Shown here in pieces: positions 1,757 to 56,702 of a stretch of 64,000 nucleotides of DNA (positions within the stretch are counted from its first letter, which is position 1; every line of letters starts with the position of its first letter). The DNA comes from Escherichia phage UPEC06. A model generated the notes under the pieces. It was given only the letters and a program-made list of their open reading frames with translations, ran no database searches and had not been told where the DNA came from. The DNA is taken from the sequence record MW250786, one strand, 5' to 3'. Made by a program: the position numbers and the translations under genes.

Positions 1757-1778
1757 GGGGGCTTCGGCCCCCTCTTTT
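1757..1778 (+). terminator. intrinsic terminator (UUCG tetraloop hairpin + U-tract)
   Basis: GGGGGC-TTCG-GCCCCC followed by TCTTTT, directly after stop codon. Confidence 0.6.
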
Positions 1779-1793
1779 CAGAAAGGAGTTAAT

Positions 1794-2429
1794 ATGGTAA
1801 TCGATAAGATTTATGGCTGGACACCTATGATCCGTATGTCTGACATGCGATATCCGGTATACCTGGCCGACTATCGTGCTGAGTATCCCAACGTATCTAT
1901 CGGCAGTTTTGTTTATGCTGTTGGTATGGCTGAGGTTGGATATCATGCGGTTTATGACGTAACTATGCCGCAAGGTGATGTTGTTACTGAAGGATCGCCG
2001 GAATTACGTGAAGATGGATTCTGGTACAGAACTTGGAATGTTAGAGACTTCACCGAACAAGAGATCGCTGATAACCTTGCTCGTGAAAAAGAGCAGCGTA
2101 TCAATGAGGCTCGGATGACTCTTGATAATGAGAGATCCGAAGGGGTTGTTGTAGCCAGCAAACGATATCAGTCAGACGCTCAAGCTTTTGCTTATTATAG
2201 TTCCATCTCTGCTGTTGCTAAAGACTCACCTGAAGAAGTTTTTCACTTAGTTACTTCTGATAATCAGGTAGAAGAATTCCTCGGTGATGAAGTTATTGCC
2301 CATATAAAAGAAATTCAAAAAGTTAACGCAAAAGTTTATGACGAGTTTGCGAAAATTGTAAAATCTATCCGTGAAGCAAGTTCTTCTGAAGAAATCCCTC
2401 AAGTACCTCCCTCTTTTCAAAATCTTTAA
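1794..2429 (+). CDS. hypothetical protein (possible fibre accessory protein)
   Basis: ATG at 1794 preceded by AAAGGAG; the track start at 1755 lies inside the terminator hairpin so the downstream start is preferred. Confidence 0.5.
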   Translation: MVIDKIYGWTPMIRMSDMRYPVYLADYRAEYPNVSIGSFVYAVGMAEVGYHAVYDVTMPQGDVVTEGSPELREDGFWYRTWNVRDFTEQEIADNLAREKEQRINEARMTLDNERSEGVVVASKRYQSDAQAFAYYSSISAVAKDSPEEVFHLVTSDNQVEEFLGDEVIAHIKEIQKVNAKVYDEFAKIVKSIREASSSEEIPQVPPSFQNL

Positions 2430-2459
2430 TAGTAAATAAACTTACTTAAGGAGCATTGC

Positions 2460-4058
2460 ATGAGTAAAAGTATTAGAGGAATGGCAGGTCATAATAACGG
2501 TGTTTTTTACGGAAATGCCCTTTATGACTTAGAAAGAAAGGTTAAAATGGATTTTAAAGATATCATGGAAAAAGGTGATTCCAGCCAAACACCTGGTCCA
2601 GAAGGTCCACAAGGACCAAAAGGGGATACTGGCCCTGCCGGACCTGTAGGTCCTGTAGGTCCGCAAGGACCACAGGGTGAGATCGGGCCTCAGGGTCCTA
2701 CTGGCCCTCAAGGACCTGTCGGAGCTACTGGTCCTACCGGACCTGAGGGTAGTGAAGGACCACAAGGCCCTCAAGGAGAGCAAGGTATAGCTGGTCCAGT
2801 AGGACCAAAAGGGGATACTGGTGAACAAGGTCCTCAGGGAGAGCAAGGACCCGCTGGTCTAAAAGGCGATACTGGGGATATTGGCCCTGCTGGACAAGAA
2901 GGGCCAATAGGTCCGACTGGCCCAACTGGCCCTGCCGGACCAAAGGGGGATGTTGGTCCTCAAGGACCTAAAGGCGAAACTGGTGAGCAGGGACCTATTG
3001 GACCACAAGGCCCACAAGGGGATGTTGGTCCTGTAGGTCCAGCAGGGCTTACTTTCCGAGGTTTTTATGATCCTTTAGTTGAATACTCTCAGAACGATAC
3101 TGTATCTTACAACGGATCTACTTATTTTTCCTTAAGAACAAGTATAGGCGCTAGTCCAGACACATCACTTGAAGATTGGTCTTTATTGGCAGCAGAGGGA
3201 GCAAGAGGCCCACAAGGCCCAACTGGCCCTCAGGGACCTAAAGGCGACCAGGGTGAGATTGGTCCTGCCGGAGCTACCGGTCCTGAAGGTCCGACTGGCC
3301 CAACTGGCCCGACTGGACCCGCTGGACCGAAAGGGGATAAAGGAGATAAAGGAGAGGTTGGACCTCAAGGACCTAAAGGCGACCAAGGGGTTATGGGAGA
3401 ACAAGGACCGCAGGGTATCGCTGGAACTACTGGACCTGCTGGTCCACAAGGACCTAAAGGCGACAAAGGAGATGTTGGCCCTCAAGGTCCCGCTGGTCCA
3501 CAAGGTTTGGATGGTATCCAAGGCCCAGCGGGTCCCCAGGGGATTAGAGGAATACAAGGACCTAAAGGCGACACTGGTGAGCAGGGAGAGAAAGGGGATA
3601 AGGGTGACAAGGGTGAGAAAGGTGATGCAGGAATATCAAGAACATTCCTTAAGGTTAAAACATCATCTGTTGGCACCAATCACGCGATCAAAATGCCAGC
3701 ACCTCTTGATAACCTATCTATAGGCATAAGGCTTGATTCAGCGGTACGTTTTAGTATTAGGGGTTGGATTGATACAGATACGACAGCCAGAAATGTTAGG
3801 GGGGATATTGAAGGCTTCAATAACTCTGAAAATTACTTCAATACAACGGTAAGACAATTGATATCTTCATCAACTGCAACTGGCACAACCCTTGTAGCCG
3901 ATATCAGCGAATTCCAAAGAATTAGGCCATATACATTTAGCTTCTTTGAAACAACAACAGAGACAATGTGGAGAGTAACTATAACTCTCTTCACGTCAGG
4001 GTATGTAGTAACTGACAATCAATGGCTATGTATAGAAGCTGTTAGACTTGATGCGTAA
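2460..4058 (+). CDS. collagen-like triple-helix repeat protein with C-terminal globular domain
   Basis: Two long G-X-Y runs ([14 protein letters not shown]...) separated by a non-collagen segment; AAGGAG upstream. Confidence 0.75.
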
Positions 4059-4113
4059 AATAACTGACGAAGGGACTCGCCTACTGATTTGTTCTTTCCT
4101 TTAATAATAGCAA

Positions 4114-4139
4114 AGCCACCTTCGGGTGGCTTTCTTTTT
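4114..4139 (+). terminator. intrinsic terminator
   Basis: AGCCACC-TTCG-GGTGGCT followed by TTCTTTTT. Confidence 0.6.
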
Positions 4140-4197
4140 ATACAAATGACTTTCTCTTTTAATTGTGGTAAGATGATACAATACTCTGGAGGAAACT

Positions 4198-4716
4198 ATG
4201 CATACTGATGAAGAAGTAATTCAACTGGTAAGAACATTTTTAGGTGGCCTTACTGAAGAAGAGATGCCTGACAGCATCATTTTATTTTTCTACAACAAAT
4301 GGAAGGTCTGCTATGATTTGGAAAACAGACCAGACCAATTCTCAATAATCCTTTACAATACTGTTTTAGATTGTGTTCGTTGGCTCTTGGTACAGAACGT
4401 ATCAAGTGGAGCTTCTGGAATACGTGAACGGTTTGAAAAGGTTGGTGATGAAACTATCTCTGTTAAATATGGAGATAATTCCGGCAACTGGCAGGACTTC
4501 CTCGATTACTTACTTGAGCACCCAGAATACATTGATCCTTGCTTAAAAGAGAACTCTGGCCTAGGGCTGGTAATAATAGGTGGTGTTCGTAAAAATGAAG
4601 TTAATCGCGTCCGTCGTAACCCAAATTCATACAATGGGTTTATGGAGAAGGGCATTTATCCGGCACCAGGGACCAGATCAGGAGTAAGGAAGCGAAATCC
4701 GTGGATGGTCAACTAA
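4198..4716 (+). CDS. hypothetical protein (neck/head-tail joining module by position)
   Basis: ORF with GGAGG upstream; lies between fibre genes and sheath gene. Confidence 0.45.
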   Translation: MHTDEEVIQLVRTFLGGLTEEEMPDSIILFFYNKWKVCYDLENRPDQFSIILYNTVLDCVRWLLVQNVSSGASGIRERFEKVGDETISVKYGDNSGNWQDFLDYLLEHPEYIDPCLKENSGLGLVIIGGVRKNEVNRVRRNPNSYNGFMEKGIYPAPGTRSGVRKRNPWMVN

Positions 4717-4779
4717 AGCTTTGAGTTTGTTGCTTTTGCTCATCTATTGTGGTAAAATAACTTTCATGGAGAAATAACC

Positions 4780-5241
4780 GTGAAGAAAACATCAACAGTT
4801 GATTTTTCTGTCATGGATCACTATTTCGACCAACTCTCTGAATTGGAAACAAAAGAGATTGAGGTGGGCTTCTTTGATGAGGCTCACTATTCTGGTCTAA
4901 ATATGGCGACTCTTGCAGCAATTCACGAATTAGGATGGAACAATCTTCCTGAACGTAACTTCATGCTTTCTACTTCGATTCATTATCGCGGTGGACTCAT
5001 CAAGAACCTCAAACGGCTTAATGATGATTTGCTGAAAGGTAAGTCATATAGCCCTGCACTCAAGAAAATCGGTAAGGACTACGCTGACAGCATTCGTTTT
5101 ACAATTGATCAAGGTACGTTCTCCAATAACCGAGTATCCACTGCATGGGCGAGCTATAAAGGATTCAGTGATGCAATGATCCATTACGGCGATCTTTCAG
5201 ATGCAGCGAAGTTTAAGATTGTTCCTCTTACGAAAGACTAA
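4780..5241 (+). CDS. hypothetical protein (neck module by position)
   Basis: GTG start with GGAGAA upstream; co-directional operon. Confidence 0.45.
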   Translation: MKKTSTVDFSVMDHYFDQLSELETKEIEVGFFDEAHYSGLNMATLAAIHELGWNNLPERNFMLSTSIHYRGGLIKNLKRLNDDLLKGKSYSPALKKIGKDYADSIRFTIDQGTFSNNRVSTAWASYKGFSDAMIHYGDLSDAAKFKIVPLTKD

Positions 5242-5250
5242 GGAGGCATA

Positions 5251-5691
5251 ATGTCTCGTGGCTATTTATTGTTAAGTCGTCGCAACCAGCTTATCCCTCG
5301 TATCGAGGTTGAAGGTCGCAGACGTTCTTATAAAAAGGTTGATTTGGATGACCCATTCGACAACGGTGGTCTGGAAATTGAATACACACCATTCACGGCT
5401 GTTGAGTGTGTCATTCAACCAATCCGAGGCAAAGCGCTTCGTGATCAAAACAACCAACTGACTACAGCAGGTGAGGAAGATTACGACTCCTATACTGTGT
5501 ATTCAGAAACTGTATTGTATCGTGCACAAGAAGGAACGGATAAACTTTCTGATCAATTGTGGCTTCCCAATTCTGTTGGTGAGAACAGTTGGTTTACAGT
5601 AATGAAAGCTGACCGTTATCCAAGTGCAGGCAACATGAGATATCGTTACTATCTGATCGCTGTACCTGTTGGAACAGAGGGTGGATTATAA
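5251..5691 (+). CDS. hypothetical protein (neck module by position)
   Basis: ATG preceded by AAGGAGG; ATGA overlap with next gene. Confidence 0.5.
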   Translation: MSRGYLLLSRRNQLIPRIEVEGRRRSYKKVDLDDPFDNGGLEIEYTPFTAVECVIQPIRGKALRDQNNQLTTAGEEDYDSYTVYSETVLYRAQEGTDKLSDQLWLPNSVGENSWFTVMKADRYPSAGNMRYRYYLIAVPVGTEGGL

Positions 5692-6350
5692 TGGATCAAT
5701 TGCCTAATGAGTTTACAAACTCCGACGAGATTATGGGCAATCTCACAAGGGTTATCGGTCGTCTCTTGAAAGACGTAACCACTTACAAGGTGGTTGAAGC
5801 TGGTGAAACAATCCCTAAAGTTGAGGGACCATTCATCCTCGTAGACCTATCAGATTTAAGCCCTCTCGATTGGGAAACAAATCAGATTGTTGAGAATGGT
5901 ATCACCCACACTGTTCACAACTACACTGCAACATACACACTCACCGCATATCGTGGAAAACCTCACTGGGCATTGACTCGTTTTCATCAGGCATTGAGCC
6001 TTGCATGGATAAGAGATAAATACTTCCCTGTCGGATCACCTTATGCTTACTCGTCCACTTCTTCTATTGCAAGATTAAGAATTCCCCTTAATGAGCAATA
6101 TTACGAAAACAGGGCAAGGGTACTGATTACCTTTAACGTTACATTCGTTGAAAGTGACTTCGGTCAGTTTGAAAATATCGAAAGCATCATTATCGACACT
6201 AGTGTTTCAGATCCCTCTGGAAACAAGATCGAAAATGAAGCCCTTATCGATATCAACGTCAAACCAGGTGGTGATGGTCCTAGTATCCCGCCAGAACCGG
6301 ATATTCCTTTCACTTACATCGATACTATCGTTACTGTAAACGAGAAGTAA
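5691..6350 (+). CDS. hypothetical protein (possible tail completion/terminator protein by position)
   Basis: ORF immediately upstream of putative sheath gene. Confidence 0.45.
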   Translation: MDQLPNEFTNSDEIMGNLTRVIGRLLKDVTTYKVVEAGETIPKVEGPFILVDLSDLSPLDWETNQIVENGITHTVHNYTATYTLTAYRGKPHWALTRFHQALSLAWIRDKYFPVGSPYAYSSTSSIARLRIPLNEQYYENRARVLITFNVTFVESDFGQFENIESIIIDTSVSDPSGNKIENEALIDINVKPGGDGPSIPPEPDIPFTYIDTIVTVNEK

Positions 6351-6391
6351 ATCCGGTTATTGATAGGCCCACGCTTATCAGTGACAAATGA

Positions 6392-6405
6392 GGGGCTTCG
6401 GCCCC
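6392..6405 (+). terminator. UUCG hairpin, terminator/attenuator-like
   Basis: GGGGC-TTCG-GCCCC; weak U-tract. Confidence 0.35.
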
Positions 6406-6461
6406 TAATCAATTGGCACTTCCGGTGCTAGTCAATAATCGTCTAGAAGCAGAGGATAAAC

Positions 6462-7877
6462 ATGGCTTATGAAGATAAGGTAGTTGACGTCGAGGTAACT
6501 CTTGGCACTCAACCTATTGATACCGTAGGGTTTGAAACCCCAATGTTCTTAGCAGTACACAACAACTTCCCTGAACGTCTCCGTCTGTACGGGTCTTTGG
6601 AAAGTCTGGTTGGTGATGGATTTGCAGTTGGTTCCGCAGCGCATCAGTTTGCATCCAATGCATTTGGCGGTTCTTTTGCTCCGCAACTGGTGGCTATTGG
6701 TCGTATGTCTATGTCGGGTTCTCGAATCGACTTTACTGGCACTACCAATACCGAACGTGTTGTTGTAAATATTACCATCAATAAGGTTGTTAAAGCAATC
6801 ACCATTTTGGTTAACGTTGGAAACACCCCTGGTCAGATCGCAACCGCTCTGGCAGAAGGCATTAACAACGATGCGGATTTGGCTGGTCGCGTTACTGCAA
6901 CTGTTGAAGGTGGTGTCGTCGTTGTTGTACAATCCGCAGAAATTATCAGCGTAGGAAAAGGCGAAGGTAATTACAAGATTGTAAACACCTCTGTTGAAAC
7001 TGTTGCAACTGTTCTTCCGCAGGTACTTGCTGAAAACCACAACTGGTACTTCCTGTCTCACGAACAACGTTCTGATGCAGATATCGTTGCAGCGGCTGAA
7101 TTTGCACAAGCCAATTATAAACTGCACGTATATAATTCCAGTGACAGCGATGCTCTGGCAGCAGCTAACCAAAGCGCTTCCGTGTTTGATACACTGAAAG
7201 CTCTGGGTTACAACTCTCTGGGTACTTACGACAAAGAAGCGGATGTAGAATTCACCGAAGGTTCTGTTATCGGTGCAATGGCTGCCAACGATCCTTCTTA
7301 CGGTGACTCTATTCACCTGAAGACAATGCCTGGCATGAAGCCTTCTACCATCTCCGAAACTCAGCGTAGCAACGCTTGGGGACGTAACGCAAACATCTAT
7401 CGTGCAATGTACGGCACTAACAGCTACATCGAAGGTCGTACCTCCAGCGGTCAGTATGTTGACGTTATTCGTTTCTCCCATTGGCTGAAATTTCGCATGG
7501 AAGAATCTGTATTCGGATACATGAAGCGTCGTTCTGATCAAGGCCAGTCCATGAAGATGAGTGATGAAGATCTTCCGGTTCTGCGTTCTATCCTGTTCAA
7601 TAATCCAATCAACATCGGTATTCGTAACGGTGGTATTCTGACTGGTTATGATACAGTGAACCGTGTGAGCTACGATCCAATCATTACTATTCCTCGTCGT
7701 GCTGAAATTCCAAGCAACGACTTGGCTAACCGTATCCTGCGTGATGTTAAAGTTGAAGTAGTTTACAACAACTCCCTGCACTACGTTAAAATTCGCGCTG
7801 CTGTTGTTCTGGATCGTCCTCAAACTACGACCCAAAGCACTCAGACTTCTTTCACTACTTCTTCTGTAGGGGTGTAA
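6462..7877 (+). CDS. putative tail sheath protein
   Basis: 471 aa; position in the order sheath-tube-chaperones-tape measure; strong AGAGGA RBS. Confidence 0.5.
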   Translation: MAYEDKVVDVEVTLGTQPIDTVGFETPMFLAVHNNFPERLRLYGSLESLVGDGFAVGSAAHQFASNAFGGSFAPQLVAIGRMSMSGSRIDFTGTTNTERVVVNITINKVVKAITILVNVGNTPGQIATALAEGINNDADLAGRVTATVEGGVVVVVQSAEIISVGKGEGNYKIVNTSVETVATVLPQVLAENHNWYFLSHEQRSDADIVAAAEFAQANYKLHVYNSSDSDALAAANQSASVFDTLKALGYNSLGTYDKEADVEFTEGSVIGAMAANDPSYGDSIHLKTMPGMKPSTISETQRSNAWGRNANIYRAMYGTNSYIEGRTSSGQYVDVIRFSHWLKFRMEESVFGYMKRRSDQGQSMKMSDEDLPVLRSILFNNPINIGIRNGGILTGYDTVNRVSYDPIITIPRRAEIPSNDLANRILRDVKVEVVYNNSLHYVKIRAAVVLDRPQTTTQSTQTSFTTSSVGV

Positions 7878-7880
7878 TAG

Positions 7881-8363
7881 ATGGCACTGAATCCTAAGTT
7901 AATTAGTCTCCAGGCGTATGACCCAGCCAAAGTCCTGATCTTTATCGGTGGTCAACGTGTTTCTGGATTCGCCGCTGATACGAAAGTCGTTGTTTCTCGT
8001 AACAATGATAACATTACTCCGCTGTCGGGTGTAGATGGTGAAGTGAGTTCTGCTATCGTCCGTGATAACTCCGGCGTAGTGACCATCTCTTTGCAGAATA
8101 CCTCTGTATGGAACGGTTATCTCTCTCAATGGCAGTTGCAAGCCCGTCTTACCGGACTTGTTTACTTCCCGATTCAGATTGAAGGTTCTCAGGGTCTATC
8201 TCTGAACACCTTCGGATGGATTCAACGTCAACCAGACCTGACCTACGGTTCTGAAGTAGGCCAGATGGACTGGGAAATTGGCGTAGTCGATGCACAGTTG
8301 AGCGCTGATCAGATTCAAGGCGTTGCTGCTGGTATCGGTGGAATCCTCGGACTGGATCAATAA
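7881..8363 (+). CDS. putative tail tube protein
   Basis: 160 aa ORF directly after sheath candidate and before chaperone pair. Confidence 0.45.
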   Translation: MALNPKLISLQAYDPAKVLIFIGGQRVSGFAADTKVVVSRNNDNITPLSGVDGEVSSAIVRDNSGVVTISLQNTSVWNGYLSQWQLQARLTGLVYFPIQIEGSQGLSLNTFGWIQRQPDLTYGSEVGQMDWEIGVVDAQLSADQIQGVAAGIGGILGLDQ

Positions 8364-8442
8364 TTACGTGAGCCTCAAGGATGAGGCCCTTCTTACGCTA
8401 CGGACATATTTATATTAACAAAGTGGACACAGGAGTGTAAAC

Positions 8443-8913
8443 GTGCAAGGTTTTAAATTTAAAAAGACTACAGAGATCACTCTCTGCGGCGGTAAGCGAT
8501 TCACGATTTATCATTGGTCGCCTACTCAAGTTATCCGTAATATGCCTAAAATTGGCAAGCTGGTAGCTGTTCCTTTGGGTACAATGGCAGGCTCTGCTAT
8601 TTCCGGTGGACAAGATTTTCAAGATGCTGTCCCAACCGCAATTCTTTATATTCTGGATCGTATCGATGAAGGTGGTCTGGAAATTATCAACCTTTTACTG
8701 GAAGGCGTTGAAGTAGACAACATGGGCGGCCCGATTGATATCGATGAAGTGTTTGATGGTCACGTAGAAGATTTGTTCAAGTTACTTGCTGAAATCATAC
8801 AGGTGAACTACGGCTGTTTTTTCGGCAAGAGCGGTTTCGGGACAATCGAAAATCTCCTTCAGAAGTTCGGTCTGGTTCGCAAGGTGGACCAACTGGATCA
8901 GACGGAAGCCTGA
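8443..8913 (+). CDS. tail assembly chaperone (G-like)
   Basis: GTG start; immediately upstream of tape measure gene; slippery site near 3' end. Confidence 0.55.
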   Translation: MQGFKFKKTTEITLCGGKRFTIYHWSPTQVIRNMPKIGKLVAVPLGTMAGSAISGGQDFQDAVPTAILYILDRIDEGGLEIINLLLEGVEVDNMGGPIDIDEVFDGHVEDLFKLLAEIIQVNYGCFFGKSGFGTIENLLQKFGLVRKVDQLDQTEA

Positions 8914-9179
8914 GGCCGCTGAGTACGGTGGAAAGGGCCTTGGAGTATTGTAGGAAAAACTCCAGTCTGAAATGGTATGACTATCTTTATTTCCGTGTCA
9001 TGGAGAAATTCAAGGGAGTTAATGAACTTTCTATTGAAAGTGGGGACATGGAAGACCTTCTTAAGAAAAATGAATATATAGATATTCAAGAATATTTGGA
9101 AGGTGTTCAAGAGAAAGAGAAGGAATACGAACGCCAGCGAATGGAACAACAAGAGGCCCAGTTAAAACGGAGAAAGTAA
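8793..9179 (+). CDS. -1 frame extension of tail assembly chaperone (GT-like fusion C-terminal part)
   Basis: ORF in -1 frame overlaps the last ~120 nt of the upstream chaperone gene and ends just before the tape measure gene. Confidence 0.5.
   Translation, partial: NHTGELRLFFRQERFRDNRKSPSEVRSGSQGGPTGSDGSLRPLSTVERALEYCRKNSSLKWYDYLYFRVMEKFKGVNELSIESGDMEDLLKKNEYIDIQEYLEGVQEKEKEYERQRMEQQEAQLKRRK
8817..8823 (+). other. candidate -1 programmed ribosomal frameshift slippery heptamer T_TTT_TTC
   Basis: XXXYYYZ heptamer in the zero frame of the 8443..8913 ORF (codons TTT 8818-8820, TTC 8821-8823); the -1 frame is open from 8793 to 9179. Confidence 0.5.
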
Positions 9180-9187
9180 ATAAATAG

Positions 9188-9222
9188 GGCTGGAGTCGAA
9201 AGACTCTGGCCTTTATTTTTAT
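9188..9222 (+). terminator. hairpin (GAAA loop) + U-tract, attenuator/terminator-like
   Basis: GGCTGGAGTC-GAAA-GACTCTGGCC (two G-U pairs) followed by TTTATTTTTATT. Confidence 0.4.
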
Positions 9223-9236
9223 TATGAGGAGTCGAA

Positions 9237-11660: not shown

Positions 11661-11665
11661 TTACA

Positions 11666-11690
11666 GGGGGCTTCGGCCCCCTTTTTTATT
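11666..11690 (+). terminator. intrinsic terminator
   Basis: GGGGGC-TTCG-GCCCCC followed by TTTTTTATT. Confidence 0.65.
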
Positions 11691-11728
11691 GTCCTTATTC
11701 GTGTTAAAATACTGAAAGGAGGAAACTT

Positions 11729-13931: not shown

Positions 13932-13934
13932 CTT

Positions 13935-14627: not shown

Positions 14628-15151
14628 TGGCTACAGTATTTAAAGACTTCCTTTTAGATCCCTCAACAGGGGATCTTGATTTCTCGACTAGGACTTTGCA
14701 GGTTGTTACCTCTAACCAGATGAGTTTACGTCAAAGGCTTTATCTTCGCTTCGGGATCTGGCAGGGTACTTGGTATTTCGATGAAACAATAGGCTTCCCT
14801 TACGGAATGTTTATTGCTAAGAAACTATCAAAAACTGTACTGGATAATAGGATAAAGCAAGAAGTTCGTCAAGAACCGGATGTGATAGCGATAAAAGATT
14901 TCAATTCTTCTGTGGAGATTTACAGCCGTAGTTATAAATGCTTCTTTACGGTTGTAACGTCAGAGGGTGAAGAGATTAACTTCGCATTCTTAGGTGATGA
15001 TACTTATGAGTATCCAACACCGCCGGAAGGTAACGTTGAACTGTGTGGTGACGAAGGTTCTTTAATTGAGTTCAAGAACAAACTTTACTACCTGATTAAC
15101 TTTAGATTACCGAAATATGGTGACTCTACTTGGGTCAACACTTGGAAATAA
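14627..15151 (+). CDS. putative baseplate wedge protein (gp25/gpW-like by position)
   Basis: 174 aa ORF overlapping spike stop (ATGA). Confidence 0.4.
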   Translation: MATVFKDFLLDPSTGDLDFSTRTLQVVTSNQMSLRQRLYLRFGIWQGTWYFDETIGFPYGMFIAKKLSKTVLDNRIKQEVRQEPDVIAIKDFNSSVEIYSRSYKCFFTVVTSEGEEINFAFLGDDTYEYPTPPEGNVELCGDEGSLIEFKNKLYYLINFRLPKYGDSTWVNTWK

Positions 15152-15157
15152 CCTCAA

Positions 15158-15183
15158 GGGAGCCTCGTGCTCCCTTTTCTTTT
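15158..15183 (+). terminator. intrinsic terminator
   Basis: GGGAGC-CTCGT-GCTCCC followed by TTTTCTTTT. Confidence 0.55.
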
Positions 15184-15242
15184 AATTCTCTGGATATTAT
15201 GATAAAATACGCTTATCGTCTAATTTTGGAGCAGGAGGAACA

Positions 15243-16727: not shown

Positions 16728-16736
16728 GGAGAAAGA

Positions 16737-17378
16737 ATGGCAGAGGTTACAGAAAAGAAGGATGTTAACCACATCCATCCTCTGCCTGATTTCGTCAAAG
16801 GGGGTATTGATTATTTACCCCCTGAGGTCTTTGAGAATAAAGATAACATCCAAAAGGTCCTTGAGATCTTCTTGAAACGTCTTGAACTCATCGATCAGAA
16901 AGCTGTTGAACTGGCAGAGATGAGAACAATCATCAATGCAGAGGGCGACACTCTCGACGAGATAGGCAGACAAAATGGTATCTTCCGTAACGGATTGAAT
17001 GACCCTGAGTACAGGGCTGTTATTATAATCCTTACAGGTATCGGATCTAAAAGCGGAACAAGGTCTGAAATAATATCCACACTGAAGCAATTATTCGGCG
17101 AAGAGGGTGTGACTACCTACAAGGGTAGAAACTATCGTATGGATATCAACATCTTCAACACCTGTGTGGAAGTTGAGCTTATTCTTGACCAAATACTTGA
17201 TATGCTCCCTCTGGTGACTCACTTGCGAGTTGTGGAGAATCAGGGATACCCGTTTGGATTTGAGGGTGACGAACAAGCATTTGGGTGGGCATCCGTCTAC
17301 GACACTGATCGTACTGGCGCGGGTGGACTTGCAACTTTAGTTTATGTATCTGACGACGAAGACCCTTGGGGCTTTTAA
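16737..17378 (+). CDS. putative baseplate protein (gpI-like by position)
   Basis: 213 aa, directly follows J-like gene. Confidence 0.4.
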   Translation: MAEVTEKKDVNHIHPLPDFVKGGIDYLPPEVFENKDNIQKVLEIFLKRLELIDQKAVELAEMRTIINAEGDTLDEIGRQNGIFRNGLNDPEYRAVIIILTGIGSKSGTRSEIISTLKQLFGEEGVTTYKGRNYRMDINIFNTCVEVELILDQILDMLPLVTHLRVVENQGYPFGFEGDEQAFGWASVYDTDRTGAGGLATLVYVSDDEDPWGF

Positions 17379-17390
17379 TGGGAGAATTTA

Positions 17391-19025
17391 ATGGCTAGAC
17401 CAACAACACCGATTGTTGTCTTTGCGGCACAAGATGTTAACCTTCCTGGCACTGGAAGACCTAACAAATCAAAACCGATTGATGACCTTTTAGCGAAGGG
17501 CTATGACAAAGGACAAAAACCAGCGGCAGAGGAATTCAACTATATTCTTCACCAATCTGGTGCTTGGCTTAACTGGATCGTAGAAGAGAAGTTCCCTGAA
17601 GTTGAAGAAGAATATAAGCGACTGATTCAGGAACTCGAAACACGAGTAAACAATCAACTGGAAGTTATTCGTGAAGATGTTGCAAACGTAAGACAATCAG
17701 TTGCAACCTTGAGAACTTATGTAGAGCAAACTGTTGCAGACATTCGTCGTGAGATCACTGCGGTTGATCAGCGTGTTACTCGTTTGTCTCAAGACTTGGA
17801 TAATGCTGTTTCCAGATTAAACGCCCGTATTGATGAGCTTGAACCTCGTTTAGTTCCGATCGGTGCAATTCTTACTTGGGCAGGCCAAACACCTCCGGCG
17901 GGATTCTTGGAATGTAATGGACAGGTATACAGTACATCTCAAAACCCGAAACTTTATCAAGTCCTTGGTAGGAACGTAGTACCTGATTATCGTGGATTGT
18001 TCCTTCGTGGCTGGGCGCACGGATCTGGCGCTTACGATCCTGACTCTGGTCGTGCTTTGGGTTCTATTCAAGGTGATGCGATTCGAAACATTACTGGCGC
18101 GATGGGTTACGAAAGTATTCGTACTGACCACGGATATCGTGAGAGTGGTGCACTTTATACGCAATATAACTCAAACTCAGGTCCTGATCACGATCGTAAA
18201 AACCCAGCGGGTGATGTTCGATTTGATGCAAGCCGTGTTGTTCCGACTGCACCAGAAAACAGACCTAAGAACGTCGCAGTGATGTATATTATCAAGACTG
18301 ATCAGGCACAAGGTACGGGAAGTCTGTCACCAACTGCACTTGTTACTACGCCGGACACTATTACAAACCGCGTAGGGTTTACTCAAGGGATTTCTGCTCA
18401 GGTTCTCCCTGCAAACTTGGCAAGTCAATACCCTGTGACGTGGACTTCTCAGAACGGTAATGTTGCAACAGTGGATAGTGCAGGTAACGTAAGATTAACT
18501 GGTCCAGGTGAAACTAACATTATCGCCTCTATCTCTACTGGTATCTCTGCCCAAGTTAAAATAGTTTCATATACACCACTGACAGCAATCAGTATCGGTA
18601 GCATACCTAGTGTAGAGGTTAATGATTCCGAGGTTATTCCTGTTAATAGAACACCTGCTAACTCTAACGAGCCTCTCGTGTATTCTACCAGTAATGCTAA
18701 CGTCGCTGTTGTAACTCAAAGCGGTTACGTATCTGGTGTTTCTCCAGGTACAGCGGTAATAACAGTTCGTGGGTCTATCACAGGCATCCAAGCCACAAGA
18801 CAGGTCACTGTAATTCCTGCAACGATTGTTCAGACCATAGAGGATGTTCGTTTAGGTCTTGAGCAACAGACGACAATGAATGGCGATGATTATACAAATC
18901 CTGTGCGTGCTCCGGCGGGTTGTGTTATTACTGGCGTTGTATCAGCAGGTCTTGGGTTAAATCAAGGTTATTATAAACCGATCCAGAAGCGTATATCTGG
19001 CGTATGGGTAACGGTGGAGGGTTAA
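17391..19025 (+). CDS. tail fibre protein with tail-collar domain and Ig-like (Big_2-type) repeats
   Basis: Motif LTWAGQTPPAGFLECNGQVYSTSQNPKLYQVLG resembles the phage tail collar domain; two Big_2-like segments (VTWTSQNGNVATVDSAGNV..., VYSTSNANVAVVTQSGYV...). Confidence 0.65.
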   Translation: MARPTTPIVVFAAQDVNLPGTGRPNKSKPIDDLLAKGYDKGQKPAAEEFNYILHQSGAWLNWIVEEKFPEVEEEYKRLIQELETRVNNQLEVIREDVANVRQSVATLRTYVEQTVADIRREITAVDQRVTRLSQDLDNAVSRLNARIDELEPRLVPIGAILTWAGQTPPAGFLECNGQVYSTSQNPKLYQVLGRNVVPDYRGLFLRGWAHGSGAYDPDSGRALGSIQGDAIRNITGAMGYESIRTDHGYRESGALYTQYNSNSGPDHDRKNPAGDVRFDASRVVPTAPENRPKNVAVMYIIKTDQAQGTGSLSPTALVTTPDTITNRVGFTQGISAQVLPANLASQYPVTWTSQNGNVATVDSAGNVRLTGPGETNIIASISTGISAQVKIVSYTPLTAISIGSIPSVEVNDSEVIPVNRTPANSNEPLVYSTSNANVAVVTQSGYVSGVSPGTAVITVRGSITGIQATRQVTVIPATIVQTIEDVRLGLEQQTTMNGDDYTNPVRAPAGCVITGVVSAGLGLNQGYYKPIQKRISGVWVTVEG

Positions 19026-19027
19026 TT

Positions 19028-19540
19028 ATGAGAATGAATAACTTCAAGCTTTATACACCGGAAGTTAAATCTTTCGGAGAAGGAGTTCAGTATTTTCAGG
19101 ATGATAAGGGTCGTGATTTCTACGACTCTCGTGCACTATTCAAAAAGAAATATGTTGTTTTCTTTGATGAGCATAATATTGTCCGTGGCTGGGCAAAGAG
19201 TGAAGAAGTTACCCGTCTTCACCCAGGTGGTTTATCTGTTGTGGATCTTAATACCCTCCCTAAAGATTTTTCTTTGCAAGGTGGTGTTTGGTCATTCAAC
19301 GGAAAACAGGTAGTTAAGGCAGACTATGATCCTGCTTTTAGCACCGCTGCAAGAAAGGCTGGCATTCTGCAAGTGATCGGTTCTGTTATCGTTCCGCTTC
19401 AGGATGCTGTTGAATTGGGAGATGCTACAGATGATGAGCTTGAGAAGTATAACGATCTTCGTAAGATGAGAGTTAAAGTCATGCGTATCCCTGATAGCAC
19501 CTCCCCTGGTGATATCGACTGGTCAGAGTTCACCTTTTAA
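19028..19540 (+). CDS. putative tail fibre assembly protein
   Basis: ~170 aa ORF immediately after fibre gene; ATG at 19028 chosen over overlapping track start at 19004. Confidence 0.4.
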   Translation: MRMNNFKLYTPEVKSFGEGVQYFQDDKGRDFYDSRALFKKKYVVFFDEHNIVRGWAKSEEVTRLHPGGLSVVDLNTLPKDFSLQGGVWSFNGKQVVKADYDPAFSTAARKAGILQVIGSVIVPLQDAVELGDATDDELEKYNDLRKMRVKVMRIPDSTSPGDIDWSEFTF

Positions 19541-19550
19541 CCTTAGATGA

Positions 19551-19568
19551 GTCGGGCTTCGGCCCGAC
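19551..19568 (+). other. stable UUCG hairpin without U-tract
   Basis: GTCGGGC-TTCG-GCCCGAC, lies in the 5' end of the track ORF 19547..19912. Confidence 0.4.
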
Positions 19569-19579
19569 TATGGAGACTT

Positions 19580-19912
19580 ATGATTGTTGATATAATGGCA
19601 GTTCTTAAAGCACTTTGGGGTCTTTTAACATTTATTTTGCTGGGTGCACTAAAGATCTTTTACACCGACTTTAAAAAATTAGAGTCACGTCAAAGCGAGC
19701 TTGAAAAAGATGTTCTTCGTTTGAAGGAATCTGCGGTTACTAAGGATAGTATCGATGCCATTCTTGACCGTAAGATAAAACATATCACTGATACGATCCA
19801 GGATATTAGGACCGATATCACAGATATGCGAAAGGAAGCAAAAGAAGAAAACCACGCTCTACAGAAGGATATTCGAGAATTACTAAACAAAATTATTGAG
19901 AACCGCAAATGA
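19580..19912 (+). CDS. small membrane/coiled-coil protein
   Basis: Hydrophobic N-terminal segment then charged helical region; start uncertain (19547, 19580 or 19595). Confidence 0.4.
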   Translation: MIVDIMAVLKALWGLLTFILLGALKIFYTDFKKLESRQSELEKDVLRLKESAVTKDSIDAILDRKIKHITDTIQDIRTDITDMRKEAKEENHALQKDIRELLNKIIENRK

Positions 19913-20367
19913 TTACAGCCATAATATATGGCATTTGTTTCGTAATCCTTGCTACTCGAAAAGAGAGTGGAACAAAGATAATGGCTGGGCTTTGCCTAGC
20001 CTATCTCGTATTGGAGAACCTGATCCTTTGGTTCTTCTCTACGCAACAATATTTCGACATCACTCTTTATTTTAATGTTCTCTGGACATTGGATTCGATA
20101 CTGCTTTTCACTATGGGTTGTACAGTGAAAGGATTACGACAAAAACTTATCGTATGCCTAAGTATTCCGTTCATGCTTATTCAAGTGTTTGCAATCCAAT
20201 ATCCAGAATTGTTCCCCTTATGGGTTTACGAATTCGCTCTTAGAGACGCTCACAAATATTTCATAGAAACCTTTGTGTTCGTTTATTCTTGGAAGGATAA
20301 TACCGTACCGGAATGGATAAGGACAGCAGTGGTGATATTTCTGGTGCTCATTGCCCATATGGTATGA
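19909..20367 (+). CDS. multi-pass membrane protein
   Basis: Several hydrophobic segments; ATGA overlap with upstream ORF. Confidence 0.45.
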   Translation: MITAIIYGICFVILATRKESGTKIMAGLCLAYLVLENLILWFFSTQQYFDITLYFNVLWTLDSILLFTMGCTVKGLRQKLIVCLSIPFMLIQVFAIQYPELFPLWVYEFALRDAHKYFIETFVFVYSWKDNTVPEWIRTAVVIFLVLIAHMV

Positions 20368-20389
20368 ACATTGATAATGAAGGTGATCT

Positions 20390-20650
20390 ATGTTAAAATT
20401 TCTCAAAGACCTCGTTACCTCTGCGGTGGAACCAGATAAAGCTTCCCATACAAAGTTTTGGTCTAACGTAGGTATGGCTGCTATGACTGCCGTCTTTCTA
20501 TGGTATGGATTCAACAATACATTGCCTGAATGGTATGTGTGGCTTTATGCTCCTACGGTAGTGGCTCCACACCTTTTGAGTGATCTCATTAACCTCCGCT
20601 GGGGATTATCTTTGAAAAAAGATAAAGGCCCTTCTGACGAAAACAAGTAA
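20390..20650 (+). CDS. small membrane protein
   Basis: Hydrophobic central segment (MAAMTAVFLWYGF). Confidence 0.4.
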   Translation: MLKFLKDLVTSAVEPDKASHTKFWSNVGMAAMTAVFLWYGFNNTLPEWYVWLYAPTVVAPHLLSDLINLRWGLSLKKDKGPSDENK

Positions 20651-20662
20651 GAGGAGAAAACT

Positions 20663-23600
20663 GTGTCGTCTAATACTGATATATTGGCACTGGTAAGTAC
20701 CGAAGCAGATCTTGCTGTTGACCAGATCATTGAAGACTCTCGAAGACTTCATTTGATCGTCAACGGAACTGCAACAGAACAAGCTGTTACAGAAGATGGT
20801 AGCTTAATCCCTAGTGTACGTAAAGCGATAATTGATAACTTTTATTTTAAAACTCCACCGTTACCGTGGAGAAATGGAAGTTCAGTTATTGAATTCAATC
20901 AGTTATATGCATTTACCGATGTAAATGGCAACGTAACTTGGTGGTATGCCCCAGGTGCAACTACCAGCACTCCTGTCGTTATGCGAGACAGTCCAATCAA
21001 CGACGGTAAGTTCAGACCTTTCTTCGATAAAGGTAACATTCAAGAAACTTACGCCCCTATCCTTTCCCCTGTTTTTCGTGGAAACCCTACTGTACCTCTT
21101 GCTGCTGAAGGTGATAACTCATTTACTATCGCGAACACAGCTTGGGTTAGTCGAGAAATAGAAAAAGTACGTGGTGAGGTTCTTGAAGAGTCCAGAGGTG
21201 AATTCCAAAACATTATCGTTGCAGATGATGCGAGTCTGAAAGATCTCTATGTAAGTGGAGAAACCATCTTCACTGGCGACAGGATCGCTGCTCTTGATGC
21301 CGAGTTATCTTTAAAAAGATTACGAATGACAGGGACAGACGCAGAAATCGCATTTGAACAAAATGGCGTTCCACCCCAGGCAGGGTTAACAAAAAGAACA
21401 AATATCAAGCCTTTCCAAGTCACCACTGGTGTTGTTGATACCGATAATATAACTGCGAGAGAGATCAAGGTTGGAAATACCTCTGTTTCCACGAATTCTC
21501 TTGATGTTGATGGATTCATGCAAGGTGACTATCTTCACTTAGAGGGTAATGCCAATAACGCAGAAGACCGCCCACAACTGATCGTTGACGGTATTGCGGA
21601 AATAAATACTCTTCGTGTGACGAACACCATTGAAGGATTGAAGGCTGACGTTGAAGGTCTGGATATTAATCCTAACAGCATTGTGGTTGAAAGAACTGCG
21701 GAGATTAAGGGAAATACAACCCTTGGTGCAGATCTTGCCGTTACTGGCAATACGGTATTGAAAAATGTAAGAATCGAAGGTACTCTCACGGGTGCTGGAA
21801 TCGGTGTTGACGGGAAAGACATTTCCCCTCGTAATGTGAGTGCAACATCCGTTACTGTGGCAGAGAGCTTAAACATTACTGGACCTACTACGGCTTCCGG
21901 CGACGTTACGGTAAACAACCTGACGGTTAATGGAACACTCAGGGCCGATATCGACTTTGGAACTGCTGCTGTTGAATTCCAAGATCTGACTGTGACTAAC
22001 AAGGCAACGATCAAGGATCTTGAAATCACCGGAAACCTGACGGGAGTTACAGTCTCTGTTGATGGTGAAGCAATCTCCCCTTCTTCGGTGACAACCACAG
22101 GAAACATCGATGTTGGTAACAACATGCGTGTTCGTGGTGATATTACTCTGGACGGTGAGTTAAGTATCCCAAGCTTAGATACTGGGGACATAACGGCTGC
22201 TGCAATTGATGGTGCGAGCCTCTCAGTTAGTGGCGACATTACCGCAGGAACAACTTCGACCACAACGGTTAACAATCTTGTAGTCACAGGAACCACTACA
22301 GGAATCACTGTAACGGGCAATGTTGACGGACAAGACATTCTCCCATCCTCTGTAGAAACAACGTCTGTAGTGGCCTCTGAGAGAGTTACAACGGCAAACC
22401 TGACATCTACAGGTGACACTCAGGTAAATAACCTGACAATTACTGGAACTGTAACAGGATTCGATGTAGATCTTACCGGAAAGGACATTCAGGTTAATAC
22501 CTTGACGGTTACTCGCGGGTCAACTTTTGACGAGGTTACTGCTAATAACATAACCAACAATCAAAAGATTACCACAGTAGACCTTCAGGTTACTGGAAAC
22601 CTGACGAATGCAGACGGTGAACAATTCTTTGCAAACGTCACTGGTCAAGATATACTTCCTAATAGTGTGCAGTCTGCAACGTCTGTGAGAACTAAAACGC
22701 TACGTGTCGAAGAGACTAGCCTATTGGAAGGTGCTGTTACCTTAAATGATGGTTTGACTATCACTGGTGGTAATATCACATCTGTTCAAGGTCAAGCAAG
22801 CTTCAATGACGTACAGGTATTTGGATCTCTTCTGGACGCGAATGGTAATGCCTTAGGGACAGCGGAAAGCATAAACGGTAAAGATATCTCTCCTCGTAGC
22901 GTTACTGCTCAAGTTGAGATTCAGACTACTGCAATTGTTGCTACAGGTCAAGCTGAAGTTGGTTCTTTGATTTCAACTGGACAAGTAATGGCAGGAAGCT
23001 TAGAGGTTTCAGGGATAGGTAATATTGGTCAGGTTATTACCGACGACGTTCGTGCTGGAAAGGTAACTTCTGGTAACACCGTTATTACTCGTACTGTTGG
23101 ATCTAGCGATCCTGCTCTTGAAGTTCGTGGACCAGGTGAGATTCAGGGTGACCTTAATGTAACCGGAACTGTAACTGGTAACATTGACCTTAGCTCTCAA
23201 GACGTTAACGTTGCTTCAATGACCTCAACGGGAACAGTAAATGCCCTTTCCATTGAGTCTCGTACATCGGTAACTGGATTGTCTGGTACATTCGGTGAAG
23301 ATTATGAAGGTGCACCTACCTATGGTATAACTTCTCTTTCCGGCGCAAACATCAACAAGAACCTTCGAGTTGGTGGAAACCTGACTGTTGTTGGTAACAT
23401 CTCTGGCAATATCGACTTATCTGGAAAGGCGATCGAGCCTGCATCTTTGTCTACCACGACAGCTACGTTAACGACGGCGAACATAACAGACCTGACTGTA
23501 ACTGGTCAGTTTAATATCCCGACTGTACCGTTAAATGTTCAATCCCTTAGTTCTGAAAACGCTATTTCCGCAAGCAAGTTCAGCACCACACCAAAAGAAG

Positions 23601-23896
23601 TAAGCACCACCTCTTCTTCTTACATCCCAGACGGCTCAACGAGCATATATAACGTAAACGTTATAAATGATGTTGAAGTGAAAGCGCCGATTGGCCTGTT
23701 GAGTTCAGGAAAAGGTGAGTCGGTATTCCTCTTCTTTGAACAGGATGGTACTGGTGGACATGCGGTAACATTCGGATCGGAGTTTGTTGTGCATGGTACT
23801 GAAACCATCAAAACAGATGCAAACACTGTATCGGTAGTTAACATGGTTTATCGTGGCAAAGGCCCATTGATTGACGTATTCATCACTCGTCGCTAA
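20663..23896 (+). CDS. large tail fibre/tailspike-like protein with internal periodic repeats
   Basis: 1077 aa, Thr/Gly/Asn/Val-rich; motif G(K/Q)DI(S/L)PxSV recurs at least 6 times; GTG start with GAGGAG. Confidence 0.6.
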   Translation: MSSNTDILALVSTEADLAVDQIIEDSRRLHLIVNGTATEQAVTEDGSLIPSVRKAIIDNFYFKTPPLPWRNGSSVIEFNQLYAFTDVNGNVTWWYAPGATTSTPVVMRDSPINDGKFRPFFDKGNIQETYAPILSPVFRGNPTVPLAAEGDNSFTIANTAWVSREIEKVRGEVLEESRGEFQNIIVADDASLKDLYVSGETIFTGDRIAALDAELSLKRLRMTGTDAEIAFEQNGVPPQAGLTKRTNIKPFQVTTGVVDTDNITAREIKVGNTSVSTNSLDVDGFMQGDYLHLEGNANNAEDRPQLIVDGIAEINTLRVTNTIEGLKADVEGLDINPNSIVVERTAEIKGNTTLGADLAVTGNTVLKNVRIEGTLTGAGIGVDGKDISPRNVSATSVTVAESLNITGPTTASGDVTVNNLTVNGTLRADIDFGTAAVEFQDLTVTNKATIKDLEITGNLTGVTVSVDGEAISPSSVTTTGNIDVGNNMRVRGDITLDGELSIPSLDTGDITAAAIDGASLSVSGDITAGTTSTTTVNNLVVTGTTTGITVTGNVDGQDILPSSVETTSVVASERVTTANLTSTGDTQVNNLTITGTVTGFDVDLTGKDIQVNTLTVTRGSTFDEVTANNITNNQKITTVDLQVTGNLTNADGEQFFANVTGQDILPNSVQSATSVRTKTLRVEETSLLEGAVTLNDGLTITGGNITSVQGQASFNDVQVFGSLLDANGNALGTAESINGKDISPRSVTAQVEIQTTAIVATGQAEVGSLISTGQVMAGSLEVSGIGNIGQVITDDVRAGKVTSGNTVITRTVGSSDPALEVRGPGEIQGDLNVTGTVTGNIDLSSQDVNVASMTSTGTVNALSIESRTSVTGLSGTFGEDYEGAPTYGITSLSGANINKNLRVGGNLTVVGNISGNIDLSGKAIEPASLSTTTATLTTANITDLTVTGQFNIPTVPLNVQSLSSENAISASKFSTTPKEVSTTSSSYIPDGSTSIYNVNVINDVEVKAPIGLLSSGKGESVFLFFEQDGTGGHAVTFGSEFVVHGTETIKTDANTVSVVNMVYRGKGPLIDVFITRR

Positions 23897-23899
23897 TAG

Positions 23900-23924
23900 A
23901 GGCCCTTCGGGGCCTTTTCTTTTT
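23900..23924 (+). terminator. intrinsic terminator
   Basis: AGGCCC-TTCG-GGGCCT followed by TTTCTTTTT. Confidence 0.6.
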
Positions 23925-25173: not shown

Positions 25174-25206
25174 AAAAGGCGCTCAAATGAGCGCCTTTAT
25201 TTTTAT
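25174..25206. terminator. bidirectional terminator between convergent modules
   Basis: GGCGCTC-AAAT-GAGCGCC flanked by A-tract and T-tract, between + gene ending 25171 and - gene ending 25220. Confidence 0.6.
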
Positions 25207-33192: not shown

Positions 33193-33218
33193 AAAACCAC
33201 CCCGAAGGGTGGTTTAAA
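33193..33218 (-). terminator. intrinsic terminator downstream of DNA polymerase gene
   Basis: On - strand: AACCACCC-TTCG-GGGTGGTT followed by TTCTTTT. Confidence 0.55.
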
Positions 33219-41383: not shown

Positions 41384-41448
41384 TTGTTTCTCCTTTCTGT
41401 TTGGTATGGGAGAAGTATAGGGGAGTTTAGGAGGGGTGTCAATAGAAA

Positions 41449-56655: not shown

Positions 56656-56702
56656 AAGGGCATCTCGAAAGAGGTGTCCTTTTTTAATTTGGAGAAAATG
56701 AA

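Follow-up and report, generated by a model that had tools for sequence, protein, structure and literature searches.

Background

Hairpins built on the sequence CUUCGG first came to attention in the mRNA of phage T4 (Tuerk et al. 1988 PNAS 85:1364, as cited in passages of PMC8948821 and PMC4371310). As those passages describe them, the hairpins of T4 and other phages follow an (X)n-CUUCGG-(Y)n design, are mostly intergenic, and are abundant in a large lytic coliphage. Their roles in T4 are described there as mixed: some with a U-tract are terminators, while others, such as the 5' hairpin of gene 32, are mRNA stabilisers (PMC8948821). Here we describe hairpins of this design in a 64,000-nucleotide (nt) stretch of Escherichia phage UPEC06 (record MW250786), referred to below as the window, where an earlier note had pointed to a recurrent family of UUCG-loop terminators in the structural genes. 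They share with the T4 hairpins the design, the intergenic placement and, by our reading, the mixed roles. Unlike those of T4, they belong to the Vequintavirinae rather than the Tevenvirinae, are non-homologous, and are known from sequence alone.

The terminators of phages phiTE (JQ015307) and CB7 (PMC7344957) are nearer relatives. Certrevirus CB7 has 27 predicted Rho-independent terminators (PMC7344957), and in these phages orthologous terminators follow a fibre gene, the chaperone gene, the tape-measure gene, a baseplate gene and the long tail-fibre gene. Either these hairpins are identical to those of the window or they covary with them, and the T-tracts match. In contrast, the records of the W70/LTH01 group, to which the window is closest, and the paper describing the group annotate no terminators or promoters.

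Two functional comparisons are also useful. Partial terminators within operons, such as the read-through T-phi of T7 and engineered "transcriptional valves", vary in efficiency with the number of Us (PMC8783025), and they resemble the window's hairpin at 9186, where a promoterless cistron follows at a step from high- to low-copy products. The polymerase here would be the host enzyme, however, and not T7 RNA polymerase. In E. coli, REP elements and the ompA 5' hairpin stabilise mRNA segments. Stabilising stem-loops of this general kind, the T4 gene 32 leader among them, resemble the hairpins at 6391 and 19550, which lack a U-tract and separate cistrons needed in unequal abundance, although 6391 is embedded in a three-hairpin leader with conserved motifs of its own.

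Results and discussion

Eight C(UUCG)G hairpins in sense orientation

An exhaustive listing of perfect G/C-rich tetraloop hairpins across the window returned eight with a C(UUCG)G cap, at 1757, 4112, 6391, 11665, 19550, 23900, 33215 and 41467. All eight are intergenic, and all present UUCG, never CGAA, on the mRNA strand; six lie on the + strand inside a + gene block, and two (33215 and 41467) lie on the - strand inside a - block. At each of these sites a C-G pair closes the UUCG loop and the stem is Watson-Crick paired, whereas 15156 (CUCGU) and 9186 and 56656 (both GAAA) have other loops. Across all hairpin sites, stems are 6-12 bp long with folding energies of -12 to -20 kcal/mol, and the hairpins stand 6-54 nt downstream of stop codons, always in sense orientation. 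The exact 12-mer GGGCTTCGGCCC was found four times in the window (at 1759, 6393, 11668 and 19554) against an expectation of 0.10, and none of 100 shuffles reached four.

The earlier note had listed nine coordinates, and a stable GC-rich hairpin is present at every one of them. Calculated folding bore out this stability, with z <= -2.0 in 10 of 12 segments. The description of five near-identical copies applies to 1757, 6391, 11665 and 19550, which contain the exact 12-mer; the fifth, AGGCCC-TTCG-GGGCCT at 23900, has a different stem and has CTTCGG alone in common with the others. Likewise, TTCG or CGAA loops had been assigned to 4114, 15158, 33193 and 41449, which is right for the hairpins at 4112, 33194-33215 and 41448-41467, while the one at 15156 has a five-nt CUCGU loop. 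Three further terminator-like hairpins of equal strength had gone unmentioned: 9186 (GAAA), 25175 (bidirectional) and 56656 (GAAA).

Conserved positions and changing stems

Each hairpin was mapped to the orthologous gene junction in nine annotated relatives and about 50 IMG/VR loci. We found that each junction holds a hairpin across Certrevirus, Seunavirus, Mydovirus and Vequintavirus relatives, where the flanking proteins are only ~40-75% identical. At many of these junctions the stems are wholly different between lineages yet perfectly paired. For 4112 the stems are GCCACC/GGUGGC, GCCGCC/GGCGGC, GGCCGCU/AGCGGCC and AAAAGCCC/GGGCUUUU; for 15156 they begin GGGAGC, GGGGC, CCACCC, GGGACCC or ACCCGC. 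For 23898 the combinations of stem and loop are GGCCC-UUCG, GCCGCC-UCCG, GGCUGUC-UUCG, GGCCAC-AGCA and GGCUCCC-AAAU, and for 19550 they are GUCGGGC-UUCG, GGCCGGG-UAUUUU and AUGACCGGA-UCU. Some orthologous stems include G.U pairs. Stems that differ and still pair, together with these G.U pairs, argue for selection on RNA structure rather than for copying of a repeat.

Loops change at fixed positions as well. The syntenic site of 15156 carries GGGGC-UUCG-GCCCC, CCACCC-UCCG-GGGUGG or ACCCGC-UUCG-GCGGGU in other genera, and at 11665 GGGGC-UUCG-GCCCC is retained in Certrevirus, Seunavirus and Mydovirus, with UCUG or UCCG loops in rV5-like phages. The position of 9186 is conserved in all genera with differing stems and loops. 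Of the 162 distinct hairpins with a T-tract that the relatives' loci contain, 50 are capped by TTCG and 64 by TNCG.

Compared over 30 nt, the flanks of the four identical 12-mers show 15-52% identity, the top values coming from T-rich downstream flanks, and the likeness stops at the hairpin edge. An exact 14-mer, GGGGCTTCGGCCCC, has at least 120 matches in IMG/VR, within a handful of metagenomes and in unrelated viral contigs. Given how few sequences are possible for an all-G/C stem of 5-6 bp around a fixed CUUCGG core, the identical 12-mers are best explained by convergence. The notion of a single sequence family was not borne out, since the flanks show no relationship and the design is found in phages at large. 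The hairpins are probably of ordinary kinds, phage terminators and RNA hairpins lying between genes, which reached the most stable known hairpin design independently, and not a new element.

T-tracts, promoter-like sites and read-through

A U-tract (tail) score, nT, was computed downstream of each stem. Scores of 3.5-5.0, with six or seven Us in the first eight nt, were obtained for 4112, 9186, 11665, 15156, 23898, 25175 (both strands), 33215, 41467 and 56656. Outside this range fall 1757 (2.57), 6391 (1.30) and 19550 (1.43). The terminator features of the phiTE record match this division: they are exactly the orthologues of 4112, 9186, 11665, 15156 and 23898, with another at a UUCG hairpin after the major head gene, and there are none at the 1757, 6391 and 19550 junctions. 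From tail, position and conservation, the T-tract hairpins are predicted to be Rho-independent terminators. The intrinsic termination suggested in the earlier note is credible for these conserved, covarying hairpins, although it would not be uniformly strong, as the genes after 1757, 9186 and 23898 need read-through.

Conserved extended -10-like sequences, TGnTAARAT, were observed within 20-35 nt downstream of 4112, 11665 and 15156. The ATGAC-N17-TGnTAARAT arrangement at 4146-4174 also occurs in phiTE, CR8, GAP31 and NDO71, and would be consistent with promoter function. Since 33215 and 41467 are likewise followed by promoter-like sites, all five hairpins appear to mark transcription-unit boundaries, and this comparative evidence favours the proposal of modular transcription units. 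The window contains 16 occurrences of TGnTAARAT, where 8 are expected; in 14 of them the motif is in sense with its gene block, and those following 4112, 11665 and 15156 are conserved between genera. Published work on the subfamily describes early sigma-70-like promoters only, and TGnTAARAT may represent its middle or late promoters. Copies were recorded at, among others, 4166, 4750, 11702, 15200 and 20391 on the + strand and 37276, 41366, 44857, 46031, 48859 and 52311 on the - strand.

At 1757, 9186 and 23898 the next start codon lies 18-23 nt past the stem, with a Shine-Dalgarno (SD) sequence between and no promoter-like site. As there is no room for a promoter, the downstream genes would need read-through, which suggests partial terminators. 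The hairpin at 9186 follows the chaperone/frameshift genes and ends 23 nt upstream of the tape-measure start, leaving no promoter space in this phage, and it marks the exact step from high-copy sheath, tube and chaperone to low-copy tape measure. The hairpin at 1757 is probably a weak, leaky terminator or an intercistronic hairpin; at its position the Certrevirus and Seunavirus relatives carry GGGGC-UUCG-GCCCC nearly without a T-tract.

Taken together, the sites suggest three classes. In the first, Rho-independent terminators read by the host polymerase (4112, 11665, 15156, 33215 and 41467) would end one unit, the next beginning at a promoter-like site; 25175, which is bidirectional, and 56656 would also belong here. 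The second would comprise leaky terminators or attenuators, namely 1757 with its weak T-tract, 9186 and 23898, stepping expression down, for example between sheath, tube and chaperone on one side and a presumably lower dosage of tape measure on the other. The third, 19550 and 6391, has no U-tract and should be unable to terminate. Its members most likely act on the mRNA as exonuclease barriers or as protected ends after processing, which would give neighbouring cistrons different message stability or translation. RNase III sites were considered and rejected, as the stems of 6-9 bp are too short by established knowledge.

The bidirectional hairpin at 25175 lies between the converging + and - gene blocks. 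Its AAAU/AUUU loop is fitting, as UUCG cannot be read as UUCG on both strands. Orthologous block-end hairpins in the Mydovirus-like loci L171 and L174-L178 have AAAU, AUUU or AAAA loops.

Hairpins without a U-tract

The earlier note had singled out 19551 as the one hairpin without a U-tract and suggested that it may not be a terminator. The suggestion was sound, although 6391 lacks the tract as well. The 19550 hairpin is 9 nt downstream of the stop (19540) of the gene for tail-fibre assembly and ends 2 nt before the GGAG SD (19572-19575) of the gene starting at 19580. At this position Certrevirus-like phages have unrelated stems (GGCCGGG.../...CCCGGCC and AUGACCGGA/UCCGGUCAU) with non-UUCG loops; the SD adjoins in every case, a T-tract in none, and in genera where the two flanking genes abut the hairpin is absent. 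It is an intercistronic hairpin and not a terminator. The possibility that it is coding sequence read from an ATG at 19547 was rejected, since the conserved protein starts at 19580, where GGAG-N4-ATG fits, and the relatives' hairpin sequences are unrelated.

The hairpin at 6391, which has no T-tract, proved to be the middle helix (Hp2) of a conserved leader of about 90 nt. Three hairpins fill the 111-nt gap upstream of the sheath gene, with a minimum free energy of -42.7 kcal/mol and z of -4.1. The leader is conserved in Septuagintavirus-like phages, Certrevirus, Seunavirus and related uncultured phages, and is unannotated in any record. A covariance model (R1), built from seven sequences, found exactly one sense-strand copy per genome at 25 loci. 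Compensatory double changes occur in all six pairs of Hp2, whose loops vary (UUCG, GUAA, GCAA, UUUUA and others). Hp1 is 97% paired, with many switches between G-C and G.U and between A-U and G.U and with two invariant U.G wobbles, a pattern that points to an RNA on the sense strand. Hp3 has an invariant core of four pairs. In an alternative helix the 5' arm of Hp1 (6354-6363) pairs with 6432-6441, so that Hp2 and Hp3 would be enclosed in a four-helix junction. For several relatives this is the fold of lowest predicted energy, and the helix is 97.5% paired; its changes are one-sided, with no double changes, which is compatible with the helix and leaves it unproven.

A scan of the whole window at Rfam 15 gathering thresholds gave no match, and a permissive Rfam scan of the sheath leader gave only a chance match (E = 3.9). 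ARAGORN reported no tRNA or tmRNA in the window, so by that test the four-helix fold is not a tRNA-like gene. In a search of the window for second copies of Hp1, as a multi-site operator would need, only the one site was found, and the motif GGTCAATAATCG is not enriched elsewhere. Sigma-70 promoter candidates within the leader (TTGATA-N17-GACAAA and TTGGCA-N15-AATAAT) were rejected for a poor -10 or wrong spacing; they are not conserved and were unflagged by the scan. The sigma-54 consensus is GG-N10-GC, TGGCAC/TTGC. Hp3 contains TGGCAC-N5-GTGCT (6414-6429), and this candidate was rejected too: the spacing is right only in the window's own group, being 1 nt too short in Certrevirus, and in Seunavirus the sequence is CAGCAC, without the GG. 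The GCAC/GUGC stem accounts for the resemblance.

Because an efficient stop at 6391 would cut off the most abundant tail proteins, we infer that this hairpin is not a terminator and would be part of an mRNA leader governing processing, stability or translation, on the model of the stabilising 5' CUUCGG hairpin of T4 gene 32 mRNA (PMC8948821).

A second structured element was observed at 8367-8438 (+), between the tube gene (7881-8363) and the chaperone gene (8443-8913). It contains a conserved nested hairpin, CGUGAG-[GCCUCA-AGGA-UGAGGC]-CCCUU-CUUACG, in which the inner loop A(A/G/U)GGA is invariant, and a conserved ANGGA follows (8400-8404). A 4-bp hairpin, ACAC-AGGA-GUGU (8427-8438), carries the SD (AGGA) in its loop; it reads ACGC-AGGA-GCGU in Seunavirus, and the varying pair is A-U in 11 sequences and G-C in 10. 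The GGA motifs number three, of which two are in apical loops and one is the SD. This fits the published pattern of CsrA targets, which have at least two GGA/ANGGA motifs in apical loops with one over the SD (PMC5207318), and by its motifs the element may be a CsrA target. The rV5-like phages have a TTGACA-N17-TAAAAT promoter instead at the position upstream of the chaperone gene.

Weighing the explanations

Tentatively, the hairpins without a U-tract can be seen as belonging to cis-regulatory mRNA elements, so far undescribed, in the late genes of Vequintavirinae, comprising a sheath leader that toggles between folds and a chaperone GGA element tied to CsrA; we consider this possible, with the odds somewhat against it. 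The leader may alternate between the three-hairpin form and the closed four-helix fold (5' CGGUUAUUGA with UCAAUAAUCG), and in this way set processing, stability or translation.

In a related reading, 6391 and its neighbours would be a regulatory RNA switch or a protein-binding leader that controls sheath and tube expression, and not a passive stability element. The conservation of the leader across genera in a single sense-strand copy and the invariant wobbles of Hp1 are in keeping with it. So is the ability of the Hp1 5' arm to pair with the invariant TCAATAAYYG and enclose Hp2 and Hp3: both folds lie within ~1 kcal/mol in several relatives, and a CG/UG swap in TCAATAAYYG still pairs with GG. 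Without two-sided changes in the alternative helix, however, a sequence conserved for another reason explains the pairing equally well. There is also no conserved ligand, protein or sequestration of the SD, and rV5-like and Mydovirus relatives do without most of the leader. We judge such a switch unlikely.

We give still less credence to the view that all the UUCG hairpins, 6391 and 19550 included, are terminators or pause sites, those lacking a T-tract acting with the help of an accessory factor or of a polymerase altered by the phage. RNA polymerase is not among the phage's own products, and the enzyme of the host is probably modified, as inferred in PMC7344957. About two thirds of the GGGGCUUCGGCCCC copies listed in unrelated viral contigs have no T-tract, and their role is unclear. 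Nevertheless, sheath and tube come directly after 6391 with no promoter-like site in the leader, which would make an efficient stop self-defeating, and 19550 leaves only 2 nt before the next SD. Intrinsic termination by E. coli RNA polymerase also depends on a U-tract. The dependence of efficiency on U count in PMC8783025 points the same way. In the IMG/VR loci L041-L160, GGGGCTTCGGCCCC is not followed by a T-tract in 87 of the 131 copies listed, and a ribosome-binding site is often close behind. Intercistronic UUCG hairpins lacking a U-tract seem to be a feature of phages in general, and a poorly explained one.

It is very improbable that the hairpins act as DNA, either as cruciforms or as palindromes to which proteins bind in replication, packaging or recombination, for instance to anchor the exchange of tail-fibre cassettes. 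The stems are perfectly palindromic, and 1757 and 4112 bracket the side tail-fibre region, with cassette exchange occurring nearby. A DNA palindrome has no need of an orientation, however, and here UUCG follows transcription in eight of eight cases, with the T-tracts on the 3' sense side. The G.U pairs of orthologous stems would be mismatches in DNA and on the other strand, and the sole site that must work in both directions, 25175, has the AAAU/AUUU loop.

Least credible of all, and rejected here, is a family by descent from one short dispersed repeat or mobile element (REP or MITE-like, or spread by gene conversion): four copies do share the 12-mer far beyond chance and GGGGC-UUCG-GCCCC is seen at several sites in relatives, but similarity ends at the stem, orthology between genera makes the hairpins older than the divergence, several sites keep their position with a completely different stem in each lineage, and the identical 14-mer is widespread in unrelated viral contigs, as expected of a very short stem of G and C only that carries the most stable tetraloop.

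Several points count against our preferred reading, that of ordinary terminators and between-gene hairpins converged on one stable design. The folding z is only -1.4 to -2.3 for 1757, 11665 and 23898 (-1.4 for the segment 23893-23930), and some short segments rich in G/C reach nearly the same stability when shuffled; the case is for this reason built on position, orientation and conservation rather than on energy alone. TGnTAARAT is only about two-fold enriched, and 2 of 100 shuffles reach 16. In the literature searched, we found no transcript 3'-end, 5'-end or read-through data for Vequintavirinae, and terminators and promoters are predictions here. In one uncultured relative (L010, 9883-9977), the orthologue of 6391, GGGGC-GUAA-GCCCC, is followed by UUUUCUU. 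It resembles a true terminator inside the sheath leader, which also suits the view that all the hairpins terminate, and the element may shift roles between lineages. The role of 6391 and 19550 is the weakest link, as stability, translational insulation, pausing and factor binding are all compatible with the observations.

Genome context and feature coordinates

Megablast of the window gave W70, A73, A7_1, A5-4 and vB_EcoM-LTH01, Escherichia myophages of ~140 kb, as best matches, with 93-96% nucleotide identity to the W70/LTH01 group over nearly the full length. By sequence, the window is from a myophage of this Septuagintavirus-like group in the subfamily Vequintavirinae; the group is named "Septuagintavirus" in PMC11370258. 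Remoter kin, at ~72-78% nucleotide identity or at the protein level only, are Certrevirus (phiTE, CR3/CR8, CB7), Seunavirus (GAP31, PVP-SE1-like), Mydovirus and the rV5-like Vequintavirus. The window holds the tail/baseplate module and replication genes. In the + block (1-25171), with gene names transferred from the CR8 RefSeq annotation, tail fibres are followed by neck, sheath, tube, chaperone, tape measure, baseplate and further fibres. The - block, from 25220 to ~54000, consists of replication genes, after which genes are again on the + strand, and sign changes in GC skew coincide with these strand switches. The intergenic share of the tail module, calculated on the W70 annotation, is ~3.4%, and almost all of its gaps of at least 39 nt contain a stable RNA hairpin. 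Coordinates of the individual features are collected in Table 1.

Table 1. Hairpins, leader RNA and promoter-like sites in the window
Feature	Position	Strand	Details
Hairpin GGGGGC-UUCG-GCCCCC	1757..1772	+	9 nt past tail-fibre stop (1747); 21 nt before start 1794; -14.1 kcal/mol
Intermediate T-tract UCUUUUCA	tail of 1757	+	5/8 U; nT 2.57
Predicted canonical terminator AAAGCCACC-UUCG-GGUGGCUUU + T-tract	4112..4133	+	after side tail-fibre gene; z -4.9; nT 4.19
Promoter-like ATGACT, 17-nt spacer with TG, TAAGAT	4146..4174	+	between terminator 4112 and gene 4198
Conserved sheath-gene leader	6352..6449	+	Hp1 6356-6385; Hp2 6391-6406; Hp3 6413-6431; TCAATAATCG 6432-6441
Predicted terminator, 12-bp stem, GAAA loop, T-tract	9186..9213	+	-19.5 kcal/mol; z -5.6; nT 3.87
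Predicted canonical terminator AGGGGGC-UUCG-GCCCCCU + UUUUUU	11665..11682	+	after tape-measure gene; nT 4.99
Extended -10-like TGTTAAAAT	11702..11710	+	between terminator 11665 and gene 11729; Certrevirus keeps TGCTAAAAT
Predicted canonical terminator AAGGGAGC-CUCGU-GCUCCCUU + T-tract	15156..15176	+	not UUCG; z -4.0; nT 4.51
Extended -10-like TGATAAAAT	15200..15208	+	between terminator 15156 and gene 15243; ATGATAAAATA nearly invariant among genera
Hairpin AGUCGGGC-UUCG-GCCCGACU, no T-tract	19550..19569	+	-16.0 kcal/mol; z -3.5; nT 1.43
Predicted terminator AGAGGCCC-UUCG-GGGCCUUU + T-tract	23898..23917	+	after long tail-fibre gene; nT 3.50; next SD <=10 nt
Predicted bidirectional terminator, 10-bp stem, AAAU/AUUU loop, T-tracts on both strands	25175..25198	both	-19.6 kcal/mol; z -6.7; nT 4.27/4.26
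Promoter-like TTGACA-N18-TAAGAT	33172-33143	-	follows terminator 33215
Predicted canonical terminator AAACCACCC-UUCG-GGGUGGUUU + T-tract	33194..33215	-	6 nt past stop of 884-aa gene; z -4.5; nT 4.53
Near-consensus promoter-like TTGACA-N17-TATACT	41442-41414	-	follows terminator 41467
Predicted canonical terminator AAACCGCC-UUCG-GGCGGUUU + T-tract	41448..41467	-	z -3.6; nT 4.33
Predicted terminator, 11-bp stem, GAAA loop, T-tract	56656..56681	+	second + gene block; z -4.5; nT 4.68

The remaining perfect hairpins in the tetraloop listing were mostly GGTCC/GGACC palindromes inside fibre genes. Many short GGTCC-N4-GGACC palindromes occur in the two fibre genes at 431-3454 (+), where they mimic tetraloop hairpins in a naive scan; they arise from collagen-like Gly-Pro-X (Gly-X-Y) repeats and are coding by-products. 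The C-terminal 120 aa of the side tail-fibre protein (2460-4058, +) had no tblastn match in any fetched relative, W70/LTH01 included. The lack of a match even in genomes 93-96% identical indicates that this receptor-binding cassette, which lies between the hairpins 1757 and 4112, has been exchanged. Finally, the record of Salmonella phage vB_Sen_SG_WM_RUS_R7 (PQ002170.1) gives Demerecviridae as its taxonomy. Its tail module is collinear with that of Seunavirus GAP31 (Vequintavirinae) and the sheath leader is present, so the label is probably mis-assigned.

Conclusions

Terminator prediction is routine in this subfamily and CUUCGG hairpins have long been known, so only the map is new for this phage group. 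It provides a transcription-unit map, with predicted unit boundaries, leaky step-downs and non-terminators, for a group without a published one, and it offers a clean case of convergence on the C(UUCG)G cap. The map would be useful for the annotation and engineering of therapeutic-candidate coliphages, in which insertions should avoid or reuse these sites. If the candidate target at the chaperone leader is a true one, CsrA would link phage tail assembly to a global regulator of the host. The structured leaders of the sheath and chaperone genes, if functional, would be new phage cis-regulatory RNAs that are directly testable by reporters, and they are more interesting than the hairpin set itself.

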